A stretch of 64,000 nt of DNA, taken from an uncultured Candidatus Saccharibacteria bacterium (lineage in GTDB: Bacteria > Patescibacteriota > Minisyncoccia > Phycocordibacterales > UBA12088). The stretch covers positions 129,072 through 193,071 of the forward strand of contig CAZLUD010000001.1 in assembly GCA_964562615.1 (NCBI GenBank), read 5' to 3'. Positions 10,063 through 59,093 of the stretch are shown in pieces. How positions within the stretch are numbered: the first letter of the stretch is position 1; every line of letters starts with the position of its first letter. The notes below the pieces were generated by a model. The model was not told the origin of the DNA. It did not search any database and saw only the letters and a list, made by a program, of their open reading frames with translations. The translations under genes were made by a program, and so were the position numbers.

Positions 10063-10113
10063 CAAATCGGCCGACCGAATACGCGTATGCGTTTCGGTCG
10101 TTGCCGTTTGTAG

Positions 10114-10133
10114 GCACTACGGGGAATCGAACG
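10114..10133. repeat. inverted partial copy of the tRNA-Glu 3' end (T-loop plus acceptor)
   Basis: gcactacggggaatcgaacg is the reverse complement of cgttcgattccccgtagtgc. Compare the tRNA 3' end ggttcgattccccgtagggtc. Confidence 0.7.
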
Positions 10134-10277
10134 ACGGAGGCGGTATACAAGAACCGAAGCGAAGCGTAGGTTGCTTGTCGCCGAGTCGCGACCTAATTTT
10201 TACGACCAAAGGGAGATAAAAATGGAAGTACTCTTTGTGGTGCGACCAGCGTGCTTAGCCATAATGGCTTAGCAAAA

Positions 10278-10302
10278 GCGGGTCGATTCCCCGTAGGGCA
10301 CA
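10278..10302. repeat. direct partial copy of the tRNA-Glu 3' end (att-like)
   Basis: gcgggtcgattccccgtagggcaca versus tRNA-Glu cggggttcgattccccgtagggtca. No complete cloverleaf can be folded upstream. Confidence 0.7.
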
Positions 10303-25191: not shown

Positions 25192-25587
25192 TCAGATCAT
25201 CGATCTTATCGCTTTTTTGATTTCCTTGTATGAGGCATCATCTGCAACACCTAATTTATCTATAAACCTTTTTGTATCAATAGGACGAGTTTGAGAAATT
25301 ATTGCCATGCGCTCAGTTGCGTCCCCAACTATCGAGCATGGAAGATAATATTTGTTACTTTTTATACGCGTTGTTAAAGGCACTGCAAGAACCAAGTACT
25401 TATTAAACTTTTTTACTATTAGTACAGGTCTTCTAAACTCGGGTCCCTTTCCATCTTGCTCGAATCCAATATTCAAACCAAGTGCAATCCACCAAACTTC
25501 TTTCTCTCTAAAAAAGATATTGCCAATATCCTCACGTTCATTTAAAAATTCCTTCTTTCCATGCCATGTTTCAAAATCCTTTTTCAT
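25192..25587 (-). CDS. MazF/PemK-family endoribonuclease toxin-like protein (solo; no adjacent antitoxin ORF)
   Basis: EVWWIALGLNIGFEQDGKGPEFRRPVLIV ... LVLAVPLTTRIK ... IISQTRPIDTKRFIDKLG aligns with the PemK consensus (GD.V.V.F..G.EQ.G.RP.VV.S ... V.PLTS ... Q.R.ID..R). Confidence 0.6.
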   Translation of the reverse strand: MKKDFETWHGKKEFLNEREDIGNIFFREKEVWWIALGLNIGFEQDGKGPEFRRPVLIVKKFNKYLVLAVPLTTRIKSNKYYLPCSIVGDATERMAIISQTRPIDTKRFIDKLGVADDASYKEIKKAIRSMI

Positions 25588-25702
25588 AAAAAAATTGTAG
25601 CATAATTTGCTCAGGCCTCACGAAGGGAGAAGTGAAAAGCAAACAATAATGTTCGTTGCACGTAAAAGGCCGAGGACAAATGTCCTCGGCCTTTTACTCA
25701 TG

Positions 25703-25775
25703 TGCTTGGGGCCGGGTTCGAACCGGCGACCCTTCGCTCTTCAGGCGAATGCTCTACCAACTGAGCTACCCAAGC
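25703..25775 (-). tRNA. tRNA-Phe (anticodon GAA)
   Basis: gcttggg-ta-gctcagttggtagagc-a-ttcgc-ctgaaga-gcgaa-gggtc-gccgg-ttcgaac-ccggc-cccaagc-a. A bidirectional hairpin (25665-25696) lies downstream. Confidence 0.85.
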
Positions 25776-25780
25776 ATGTA

Positions 25781-26110
25781 CTACTCTTTTGGGGTAGAGG
25801 TAGCTTGCTCTCCTCCCAAATAGTTAAGCAACTTCTGTATTCCTTCAGGTAATATAGATTCGGCATTTTTTATACCATCTACTTGTTGCTTTATTTGTGA
25901 ATACGATGATGATATCTCATTCATATACGGTTGTACGTATGAATAGTAGATATACAGCGGCACCCCGATAAGCAACCCCCAATACACAATGGTAATGACG
26001 GTAGTAATTATCCCAGAACGCCGAATTTTCTTCAGCATTCTGTTGTTCTCCTTTTCAAGCTCCAAGGTCTCCCTTAAAAGCCTTAGTGATTCATCGTCCT
26101 TTTGATCCAC
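25781..26110 (-). CDS. hypothetical small membrane protein
   Basis: One TM segment; no motif. Confidence 0.3.
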   Translation of the reverse strand: MDQKDDESLRLLRETLELEKENNRMLKKIRRSGIITTVITIVYWGLLIGVPLYIYYSYVQPYMNEISSSYSQIKQQVDGIKNAESILPEGIQKLLNYLGGEQATSTPKE

Positions 26111-26175
26111 CGCATGATTCTACCAGAAATACTCCCCAAAATAAAGCGCTTAATGTTGACCATCTCCAACGTCGT

Positions 26176-26484
26176 CCAAGGTTCGATTCCTGTTCGGGTG
26201 TGGTGATTGTTTCTGTGCCCTTGGCAGGATATCTCACTCCTCGGAAACCTCACGGTTTTCCGAATCCTTCCTCCACGGGGAAACGGTTGTTTCCCCGACC
26301 CCCTTCCAAGGTTCGATTCCTGTTCGGGTGCATCGACCACTACTGTGCCCTTGGCAGGAATCTTTCCTTACAGGAACAGTAGACCTTTTCTGTTTTTCTT
26401 CGAAAAACTATCAAAGGTTTTCGATTCCTGACAAAACAGTCCCCCAGACTGTTTTTCCAGGGCACAAATTTGTAACCAAATTTG
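26176..26484. repeat. three tandem ~130-bp units of tRNA-derived fragments downstream of tRNA-Arg
   Basis: A-fragments ccaaggttcgattcctgttcgggtg at 26176 and 26306, with a degenerate copy at 26412. B-fragments tgtgcccttggcagga at 26214, 26344 and 26484. B is the tRNA-Arg 3' end. Confidence 0.75.
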
Positions 26485-26556
26485 TGCCCTTGGCAGGAAT
26501 CGAACCTACATCTCTCCCTTAGGACGGGATTGCTCTATCCATTGAGCTACAAGGGC
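26485..26556 (-). tRNA. tRNA-Arg (anticodon CCT)
   Basis: Acceptor gcccttg/caagggc. D-arm tagctcaatggatagagc. Anticodon loop gtcctaa. T-arm gtagg-ttcgatt-cctgc. Confidence 0.8.
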
Positions 26557-26622
26557 AATTATTTGATACCGGCACTATAGCACAAAACCCCGCATTGTTT
26601 ATGCGGGGTTTTGTGTGTGCGC

Positions 26623-26871
26623 TTATATATTAAGCAATGTTGATAGTTGCTTTTCTTCAAAACCTATCATCATTTCTTCCTTATCACCCTCCTTTACGAC
26701 AATCACTGGCACTCCCATTTGCCCGCTCTTGTCTACCATTTCTTTTCTTTTCTCAAGGTCATCTGCAACGTTGTACTCAGTATACATGAGTCCCTTTTCA
26801 GTCAAAAAATCCTTAGTTAATTTGCAAAAATGACAGGTAGGGGTGCTATAGATGGTGATTTGTTTTTCCAT
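26623..26871 (-). CDS. glutaredoxin-like (NrdH/YruB-type) redox protein
   Basis: ITIYSTPTCHFCK CxxC motif. 82 aa thioredoxin fold. GVPVIVV. Confidence 0.8.
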   Translation of the reverse strand: MEKQITIYSTPTCHFCKLTKDFLTEKGLMYTEYNVADDLEKRKEMVDKSGQMGVPVIVVKEGDKEEMMIGFEEKQLSTLLNI

Positions 26872-26989
26872 AAATACTAATTATCTTACAAGCTAGGGCA
26901 GTATAGCATAATTTACCTATTGCAAAATACACCGTTACTGTGTCTTATGCTTACACCACTATCGCGATATATCGCGATAGTGGTGGCAC

Positions 26990-27610: not shown

Positions 27611-28075
27611 GTGGTCAAGCTACGGCAGCTGACAGGTTATAATCTAGGGATAATTTCAAAAATTGTTGGTGGCGATTATAATCGCCACGGCGTTTCAAAT
27701 ATTGGCGCCACTCTTGGCAAGCTATTGCAAGGAGAATCAGTACCAAAGGGAGTAGAATTTTTTGCTATATACCATGGTAATGATTTTGTAGGGGTAAGAT
27801 ATATCAGACCTCAGGAAGAAGGAGTTGAAACGGGAGTATGGATACTCCCCCACCAGAGGAAACGTGGATATGCCACAGATTCACTGAAAGCTCTTATTGA
27901 AATAATGCAAGCTGAGTATGCATGTGTTGGGTATAAGAAAATTTTTATCTATGTAGATAAGGCTAAAAATCCACACGCATGCATTCCCGCAATAAGGTGT
28001 GGGTTTACCGAAAAAGGAATTGCTGAAAATGATAATGGATCACAATTTGCAATATTCGTCCTCCAATTATATTGA
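27611..28075 (+). CDS. GNAT-family acetyltransferase-like protein (GTG start)
   Basis: HQRKRGYATDSLKALIEI resembles GNAT motif A (Q/RxxGxG/A). 154 aa. Confidence 0.5.
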   Translation: MVKLRQLTGYNLGIISKIVGGDYNRHGVSNIGATLGKLLQGESVPKGVEFFAIYHGNDFVGVRYIRPQEEGVETGVWILPHQRKRGYATDSLKALIEIMQAEYACVGYKKIFIYVDKAKNPHACIPAIRCGFTEKGIAENDNGSQFAIFVLQLY

Positions 28076-38000: not shown

Positions 38001-38025
38001 GATAAGTGAGGGATTCGAACGCCGG
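38001..38025. repeat. inverted partial copy of the tRNA-Ser(GGA) 3' end
   Basis: gtgagggattcgaacgcc is the reverse complement of ggcgttcgaatccctcac. It shares 15 nt with the tRNA T-arm and acceptor 3' strand. No complete tRNA folds on the minus strand. Confidence 0.6.
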
Positions 38026-58710: not shown

Positions 58711-59091
58711 GGGGATGATTGGCCTCGACAGTGAGTATGTGTTGCATAGTGTGCGAGTTCGTGTGAGGTGACACGGTAAAAACATCTCAACCAATACGTG
58801 CTACAAAACTTCGCACGGCAATTCTTTCACCTTTCCAGATGAAGGATTTTGCACTCGCTGTAGCCTAAGGCTCGCGACATCCTACAGAGTATTGTCTGAT
58901 AGCTTTGTAACGGTGTAATACCATCAGAACCGCAGAAAGGGTGCATCGCCTTATCTGTTAAATAATGATGCTATATGGTATCGGCTTTTGACGAATTTTC
59001 TATCGACACCACGAACCAACAAATTCGCCAAGACTTCGTAGACTCACTATGCACTCCTCTCTGGATGCGGGTTCGATTCCCGCCATCTCCA
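58711..59091 (+). ncRNA. ssrA: tmRNA (SsrA), standard one-piece
   Basis: 5' GGGGATGATTGGCCTCGACAG (tRNA-like half). Candidate tag ORF GCA-ATT ... GCACTCGCTGTAGCCTAA encodes AILSPFQMKDFALAVA-stop. 3' GGATGCGGGTTCGATTCCCGCCATCTCCA, whose acceptor pairs with the 5' GGGGATG. Confidence 0.8.
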
Positions 59092-59093
59092 CA

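Follow-up and report, generated by a model that had tools for sequence, protein, structure and literature searches.

A structured, protein-less element tied to tRNA 3' ends in Patescibacteria, probably an insertion element, and its nested copies behind a tRNA-Arg(CCT) gene

Downstream of a tRNA-Arg(CCT) gene of an uncultured Candidatus Saccharibacteria bacterium is an array of tRNA 3'-end fragments that contains a conserved, hairpin-forming core, and the same core recurs behind at least 20 tRNA and transfer-messenger RNA (tmRNA) species of Patescibacteria. The DNA analysed, 64,000 nucleotides of contig CAZLUD010000001.1 (positions 129,072 to 193,071), is referred to as the window, and coordinates are those of the window unless a comparison locus (L numbers) is named. 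The core and its flanks probably constitute a non-autonomous, structured insertion element specific for tRNA 3' ends, of which the window holds a local nest consisting of one intact copy and remnants. The 3' ends of tRNAs are the classic landing pads of mobile DNA, and to our knowledge all well-studied cases depend on an integrase suited to one particular tRNA. In the present case, one gene-less scaffold stands behind all of these species, each time flanked by copies of the tRNA in question. If the element is mobile this would imply a non-textbook way of recognizing or copying targets, in the poorly understood and genome-reduced Patescibacteria; if it is a host RNA, tRNA genes would be accompanied by an unannotated RNA that is both widespread and highly conserved.

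The association with tRNA genes is without exception among the copies analysed. A same-strand tRNA or tmRNA gene lies 3–184 nt upstream of the core in 37 of 37 non-redundant copies, and these represent 20 partner species: Arg (CCT, TCT, GCG and CCG), His, Phe, Gln, Val, Thr, Lys, Cys, Trp, Glu, Gly (CCC and TCC), Leu (TAA and TAG), Ile (GAT and TAT) and tmRNA. The orientation of the element is that of the tRNA in all copies, the whole insert measures 110–190 nt, and the layout is the same throughout, comprising the tRNA, often a hairpin resembling an intrinsic terminator, an inverted copy of part of the tRNA, the core, and a direct copy of the tRNA 3' end. The inverted copy reproduces the host tRNA from G53 (in the T-loop GTTC) outward to positions 65–76 and sometimes runs on into the trailer, in which case a single long palindrome spans the tRNA 3' half, the hairpin and the inverted copy. 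In nearly all copies it stops at G53, exactly where the core begins. The direct copy extends from about position 61 (range 55–61, the T-loop/T-stem boundary) to the end of the tRNA plus 0–12 trailer bases, and is followed by what appears to be the original trailer and terminator. Exact matches to the tRNA are 4–24 nt long for the inverted copy and up to 27 nt for the direct copy; intact direct copies comprise 14–27 nt, and a few are decayed. Both flanks match the local tRNA and thus differ at every site. The inverted copy even tracks local T-loop variants (TTCGAAC in Phe, TTCGACC in Ile), which indicates that it is either copied from, or co-evolving with, the neighbouring tRNA. There is no protein gene that could be assigned to the element: no conserved neighbouring open reading frame (ORF) is evident across 19 loci, no ORF-bearing version occurs among the fetched loci, and none of the 29 window ORFs scanned contains a recombinase, integrase, transposase or reverse-transcriptase domain.

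The core, in contrast to these site-specific flanks, is shared between sites. It comprises about 85–95 nt, in which two or more covarying hairpins are joined by almost invariant purine-rich linkers (GGGGTC, GTGGAGGAAGGATT and AGGAGTGAGAT). The proposed hairpins are paired in 96.9% of cells in an alignment of 20 copies and in 97.0% in an alignment of 43 copies, compared with 16–78% in slid controls. Double-sided changes number 22 and 44 in the two alignments, respectively, against 7.7 and 14.7 in shuffles, none of 500 of which reached the observed value. The first hairpin (hp1) is variable in length and tolerates large insertions (L018, L033 and L069), extra hairpins sit at fixed insertion points, and the unpaired linkers are 90–98% conserved across the 43 copies. 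Wobble pairs display a pronounced strand bias; on the tRNA-sense strand there are 11 G.T cells, from at least seven lineages, and only two A.C cells, both of which are alignment shifts. Taken together, the pairing, the covariation and the strand-specific wobble argue that the functional form is a single strand, of RNA or DNA, with the polarity of the tRNA. In most copies the inverted and direct copies are predicted to pair with one another and close the structure with a helix of 5–15 bp (mean 8.7, compared with 6.6 in shuffles). Whether the inverted copy pairs with the T-arm of the tRNA itself as a conserved feature received a mixed answer: L027 speaks for such pairing, while L032 favours pairing with the direct copy.

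The distribution of the core was explored with a linker pattern, GTGGAGGAAGGATT-N20-AGGAGTGAG, which returned 19 loci from about 16 Patescibacteria genomes in GTDB (Yonathbacteria, Nomurabacteria, Paceibacterota, Minisyncoccia and others), and with a looser version used on metagenomes, which returned 41 loci, about 27 of them genuine. The pattern was not present in viral contigs, and blastn against phage and plasmid records revealed no similarity. A covariance model (R1), built from 20 copies and run on the fetched loci, gave 48 matches in 41 of these loci, including divergent subfamilies and copies with an extra hairpin; the conserved core was recognized once in the window and a further 42 times in the other Patescibacteria loci. 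Several copies may occur at different tRNAs of one genome: L064 contains three within 11 kb, and JAUPUJ01 carries nearly identical cores at its His and Leu tRNAs. There are two subfamilies, each found at several tRNA species. When the window copy, L023, L064 and the tRNA-Glu element described below were compared with Rfam 15 at the E-value threshold, they matched only tRNAs and sub-threshold hairpin models; a ‘hairpin ribozyme' match (15 bits, E=8) was dismissed as noise. The literature searched contains no description of this architecture. The element is widespread in Patescibacteria and, to the best of our knowledge, undescribed. Of the 44 tRNA genes in the fetched loci that lack the core, 13 are nevertheless followed by at least 10 nt of their own 3' half in inverted orientation, and further families of this kind probably exist.

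Within the window the array occupies the following positions, listed from the tRNA outward. B denotes the direct copies and A the inverted copy together with the first bases of the core, the two letters being those of the first-pass annotation.

26484..26556 (minus strand): tRNA-Arg(CCT), the host gene of the array (ARAGORN; Rfam tRNA model, 62.5 bits)
[quoted passage not shown]
26360..26482 (minus strand): module X, 123 nt, ending at B2 (inverted repeats; terminator scan)
26344..26359 (minus strand): B2, a direct copy of the tRNA 3' end; 19 nt are identical to the tRNA when GAT is counted
26331..26343 (minus strand): 13-nt variable spacer from B2 to the inverted copy; differs in relatives L002, L004 and L013
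26306..26330 (minus strand): A copy 2, an inverted tRNA T-arm copy with a foreign acceptor-like part and the first core bases
26230..26343 (minus strand): module Y, 114 nt, comprising the 13-nt spacer, A and two hairpins
26231..26327 (minus strand): the conserved core, the sole intact one in the window (model R1, 104.5 bits, E 1.2e-26; 43-copy alignment)
26277..26296 (minus strand): hp1, GGGGAAAC-AACC-GTTTCCCC read on the minus strand; covarying, and of different length from copy to copy
26242..26262 (minus strand): the second hairpin (hp2), CGGAAAACC-GTGA-GGTTTCCG read on the minus strand; its outer pair is C-G or G-C among copies
26214..26229 (minus strand): B1, a direct tRNA 3'-end copy closing module Y (exact match)
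26150..26213 (minus strand): module Z, a truncated copy without a core (only 8.6 bits to R1)

The 16-nt repeat B (TGTGCCCTTGGCAGGA in the plus-strand reading) consists of the T-stem 3' strand, the acceptor 3' strand, the discriminator and 2–3 trailer nucleotides. The earlier claim that it is an exact copy of the tRNA-Arg 3' end was borne out, since all three copies, at 26214, 26344 and 26483 (spacings 130 and 139 nt) and including the tRNA's own, are exact; three matches with up to three mismatches arose in 2 of 100 shuffles. The array had been described as three tandem units of about 130 bp, each with an A fragment, a B fragment and two conserved spacer hairpins. The fragments and the hairpins do exist, but the units are not equal. 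Fragment A (CCAAGGTTCGATTCCTGTTCGGGTG), within which 14 nt are a perfect inverted match to the tRNA T-arm, occurs twice without any change, at 26176 and 26306 (0 of 100 shuffles reached two matches), whereas the supposed third copy is merely an 11-nt degenerate T-arm/T-loop remnant, TTCGATTCCTG, at 26420–26430. Both hairpins occur once, confined to the B1–B2 interval that is module Y, and are therefore not repeated between units. The 13 nt separating A from B are wholly different in the two A–B pairs, and the B2–B3 interval (module X) shows no sequence relationship to module Y. No array was reported at the tRNA-Arg site by Tandem Repeats Finder.

Module Y is the only one in which model R1 recognizes an intact core, arranged on the minus strand as GGAATCGAAC..GGAAGGGGGTC, hp1, GTGGAGGAAGGATT, hp2 and AGGAGTGAGAT. 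The acceptor-like part of its inverted copy, CACCCGAA on the tRNA-sense strand, does not match tRNA-Arg, which suggests that Y either derives from another tRNA site or has diverged. Module X contains a 14-nt palindrome arm that mirrors the tRNA 3' end (26459–26490), a terminator-like hairpin (26427–26461), a degenerate inverted T-arm copy (26416–26430) and 55 nt without homology to the core. It is identical in L013–L015 and has no match to R1; a reading of X as a diverged core was rejected, as neither R1 nor blastn supports it. Module Z is made up of a 13-nt spacer (26201–26213), A copy 1 (26176–26200) and 26 nt of unrelated sequence. The array is best read as nested insertions at one tRNA, of which X is old or of another type, Y is intact and Z is truncated, the modules having then been shuffled by recombination or slippage at the 16-nt repeats. 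It is not a CRISPR array, as had already been stated: the repeat is a tRNA end, the intervals are long (114–123 nt) and not unique, one of them is a conserved element, and the ORFs of the window that were scanned showed no cas domains. No pseudo-tRNA or tRNA-like gene was detected by ARAGORN or Rfam on either strand of 26050–26650, where the true tRNA is the only match, and the possibility that A and its upstream B constitute a tRNA-like gene on the plus strand was dropped because the acceptor-like pairing of the two is not conserved in L010. As a separate observation, a sigma-70-like sequence, TTGTCA-16-GATAGT (a 9/12 consensus match only), lies at 26407–26434 on the minus strand within module X and is directed into the intact element, whose transcription it could drive. 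Hairpins that use the acceptor 3' strand are also formed by presumed native trailers, both at 26459–26490 in the window and at L050:6040–6100 (minus strand), an example being CCGGCACAAAATAAAACCC-GTTA-GGGTTTTTATTTTGTGCCGG; terminators in these genomes may generally mirror the end of the tRNA.

Comparison of strains shows that modules bounded by B are gained, lost and reordered. Contigs of the same and sister strains were recovered through the flanking glutaredoxin and 109-amino-acid ORFs; the latter, next to the array, was abandoned as a synteny anchor since it is an orphan that matches only its own cluster, and the glutaredoxin gene was used instead. L001 and L005 are identical to the window, and L002 carries a variant B2 and a variant Y. 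In L014 and L015 the order is tRNA-B, X, B' and Y', with a pilin-like gene and then an HlyIII-like one immediately beyond. L013 is equivalent to L014 with one extra Y and one extra 16-nt B placed exactly at the tRNA end, 130 bp in total. The order of modules is not the same in the window, L002, L013 and L014. In a relative whose glutaredoxin is 95% identical (L010), a Y-like module stands behind the same tRNA with linkers identical to those of the window, a changed hairpin loop and one changed stem pair that is compensated.

On the far side of the array, L004 and L006–L008 differ in sequence from the window down to 26150, and homology restarts at 26149. In sister strains the window interval 26150–26229 (B1 and module Z) is replaced by a 1.4-kb segment encoding the pilin-like (N_methyl/T2SSG) and HlyIII-like proteins (L004:148–1531, L013:2430–3860 and L014:755–2180). 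This segment is a strain-variable surface-protein cassette next to the array, and its far side is not bounded by B. Several contigs end inside the repeats, which break assemblies and are a source of strain-level variation beside surface-protein genes. The earlier view of the region as a hot spot of repeated tRNA-targeted integration is upheld in so far as strains differ by repeat-bounded modules, but there is no linked integrase or foreign cargo. The two neighbours that had been cited in its support are indeed nearby, but do not belong to the element, since both lie on the conserved side of the 26149 breakpoint:

25702..25775: tRNA-Phe
25192..25587 (minus strand): ORF of a PemK/MazF-like toxin (E 1.6e-12), with no antitoxin-sized ORF adjacent; absent at the syntenic locus of L010

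Of the interpretations offered in the first-pass annotation, the closest is a tRNA-derived miniature element family. Presence beside many different tRNAs, which it had named as the sign of a repeat family, is found for the hairpin core, which stands behind at least 20 tRNA/tmRNA species; the diagnostic part, however, is this core and not A and B. A search with exact A returned no match in viral and GTDB genome collections, which is explained by A being site-specific, and A and B differ at every site because both are local copies of whichever tRNA is upstream. Overall, the earlier observation is partly confirmed and its interpretation partly supported.

The following observations lead us to favour an insertion element. 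The direct repeat has the position and extent of the identity blocks at which integrases act; L013 and L014 differ by exactly one element plus one repeat; and near-identical cores occur at different tRNAs of one genome (the His and Leu tRNAs of JAUPUJ01), with two subfamilies each at several tRNA species. Such an element would enter at the tRNA 3' end by recombination within a short block of identity, leaving the direct repeat in the manner of integrative elements that target tRNA genes. It may act as a folded single strand of tRNA-sense polarity, in which the inverted and direct copies would pair into a duplex image of the target, and it would be mobilized by an enzyme encoded elsewhere; the core may in addition be expressed as an RNA. 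Once several repeats are present, recombination or slippage could add, remove or reorder modules and so generate the differences between strains. The anatomy, the link to tRNA genes, the covariation, the strand bias, the module polymorphism and the lack of a linked protein gene are well supported by the data, whereas this mechanism is inferred. The folded intermediate is suggested by the strand-specific wobble pairs and by the arrangement of the sites, which resembles that of an integrated CTXphi. The latter has a direct site at one end and, at the other, an inverted site, a spacer of about 90 nt and a direct site, and its attP(+) hairpin is used by XerCD; in both CTXphi attP and integron attC, function depends on one folded strand. 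The tRNA end followed by inverted copy, core and direct copy reproduces this pattern of arrows, which we offer as a lead and not as a test, and the strand-specific G.T pairs fit the folding of one strand. Unlike CTXphi and attC, the target is a tRNA 3' end and not dif or attI, there are no phage or cassette genes, and the stem changes with the target.

Several observations weigh against this interpretation. No excised form (in which the circle junction would read as the core end GAGATA followed by TCCTGCCAAGGGCACA and GAAACAATCACCA), no mobilizing enzyme and no empty-site series outside this species were found. Strong intrinsic terminators lie between tRNA and element in at least 10 loci, which makes co-transcription with the tRNA doubtful. 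In L025 (114.9 bits), L032 (109 bits) and L027 the direct repeat is decayed and the core is near consensus; selection on the core in place, as an RNA used by the host, explains this at least as well as a purely selfish element does. The closing helix is often imperfect and contains uncompensated mismatches (L021, L023 and L075), which means that it is not maintained once insertion has taken place. It should also be emphasized that the loci were sampled through the core pattern, which biases copy numbers and the range of partners, and that the module polymorphism could have arisen by unequal recombination between the repeats without any site-specific step.

It could alternatively be argued that the core belongs to a family of host non-coding RNAs located in the tRNA 3' flank. 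The closing helix would then imitate the acceptor/T-stem stack, the RNA would be released by RNase P and 3' trimming, and copies would have spread through duplication of tRNA flanks. We regard this explanation as serious, if on balance unlikely, and it is compatible with a mobile origin. Several observations are in its favour: the wobble pairs are specific to the tRNA-sense strand, the single-stranded linkers are near-invariant, extra hairpins are placed at fixed points, orientation is always that of the tRNA, a closing helix is predicted in most copies, and the core persists near consensus beside the decayed repeats of L025 and L032. There is precedent in 3'ETS-leuZ of E. coli, a functional RNA in a tRNA trailer that is freed by tRNA processing. 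Trailers of this type, however, are single and locus-specific, whereas the module described here recurs behind many tRNAs with flanks derived from the target. The terminators that separate tRNA and element in many loci, and the uncompensated mismatches of the closing helix, likewise speak against this explanation. Moreover, the direct repeat includes up to 27 nt with non-tRNA trailer bases, resembling an insertion footprint, presence/absence polymorphism involves exactly one unit, the partner tRNAs vary between genomes, and there is no corresponding Rfam family.

A further explanation, which we consider improbable, is that the element is an origin-end-only derivative of a rolling-circle transposon (IS91-like, of the HUH type) that targets the T-loop GTTC. 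When the strand opposite to the tRNA is read, a core of about 85 nt with two subterminal palindromes lies immediately next to GTTC (G53–C56 of the inverted copy) in nearly all copies. This is reminiscent of oriIS of the IS91 family, in which two subterminal palindromes are flanked by an essential tetranucleotide, 5'-GTTC or 5'-CTTG, and transposition requires no more than about 82 bp (PMC13181058). IS91-family elements, however, generate no target duplication (PMC13181058), in contrast with the direct repeat of up to 27 nt seen here. In addition, no HUH transposase was seen at the 19 loci or in the 29 window ORFs, there is no terIS, the wobble bias favours the other strand, and plasmid and phage collections contain nothing similar in sequence.

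Largely refuted, and more improbable still, is the proposal that the B copies are attL/attR scars left by successive integrase islands whose interiors were deleted. The repeat does extend from the T-loop/T-stem boundary past the tRNA end, as an integrase identity block would, and relatives have the strain-variable pilin-like and HlyIII-like genes beside the array. The interval between the repeats, however, is not random island debris but a conserved structured core of 95 nt that recurs at 20 other tRNA species. The pilin/HlyIII segment has no B copy at its far end, neither the scanned ORFs of the window nor the surroundings of the 19 loci yielded an integrase, and the inverted copies are left unexplained. 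Template switching during replication, by fold-back at the terminator palindrome and return through the self-complementary T-arm to give a direct-inverted-direct triplication with no mobile element, is the least credible of all: it would account for the long palindromes of tRNA 3' half, hairpin and inverted copy (L021, L023, L045 and L057) and for the inverted copies behind 13 of the 44 core-less tRNAs, and could have contributed to making the inverted copy, but is inadequate alone since it cannot yield the same covarying core at 20 tRNAs in many genomes, nor an inverted copy that always ends at G53, exactly where the core starts.

The insertion element that we favour shares features with several known systems without conforming to any of them. 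As with integrative elements that target tRNA and tmRNA genes (tyrosine-integrase islands and prophages), it is located at tRNA/tmRNA 3' ends and keeps the gene intact, its direct repeat starts within or beside the T-loop, and repeats build up in tandem at a single tRNA. In contrast with these islands, it has no integrase, no cargo, an insert of just 110–190 nt and an extra inverted copy of the target, a single near-identical core serves at least 20 tRNA species, and the interior hairpins covary as a single strand. Like miniature inverted-repeat elements (MITEs) and REP/BIME repeats it is short, non-coding, multi-copy, gene-less and hairpin-forming; unlike them, its terminal inverted repeat is copied from the target and not specified by the element, its duplication varies in length, and it is inserted strictly behind tRNA/tmRNA genes in one orientation. 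Analogies with IS200/IS605, bridge RNAs and TnpB guides were also considered and set aside. A further possibility, which we advance tentatively, is a new class of protein-less structured element whose target would be the 3' half of tRNA or tmRNA genes of any species. Such an element would bear, or create when it inserts, inverted and direct images of the target around a scaffold of about 90 nt, and so possess a target-recognition module that matches itself. Its active form might be a folded strand or a guide-like RNA that serves a recombinase encoded at another site, and the host might have co-opted it as a tRNA-linked RNA.

Two further sites in the window have features of this architecture:

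10064..10302 (plus strand): a second element, behind tRNA-Glu(TTC), which shares the layout but not the interior
38006..38020 (plus strand): 15 nt that repeat the T-arm of tRNA-Ser(GGA) in inverted orientation, 51 nt downstream of the gene

The tRNA-Glu element consists of a hairpin, an inverted copy of tRNA-Glu positions 53–68 (10117–10132), a structured interior of about 150 nt and a direct copy of positions 55–76 (10283–10302). Its predicted fold has an energy of -79 kcal/mol (z -5.6), with a closing helix of 14 bp provided by the inverted and direct copies. The element matches no Rfam family, and the fetched loci contain no relative. The inverted copy behind tRNA-Ser(GGA) is followed by GCCGGAG..., which resembles the start of other cores. 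As a direct repeat was not seen there, this is possibly a third, decayed element.

Other observations concern the surroundings of the array and the host genes. A second strain-variable spot lies 1 kb off, where the region of a GNAT acetyltransferase gene (27611–28075) differs from that of the same species in L003:153–677. Upstream of the glutaredoxin gene a 10-bp palindrome, TATCGCGATA, occurs twice in tandem (26960–26979) inside a larger inverted repeat. Finally, tmRNA hosts the element in L030, L031 and L070; the tmRNA of the window (58711–59092, plus strand) is without it, and has an unusual tag peptide, ATKLRTAILSPFQMKDFALAVA.

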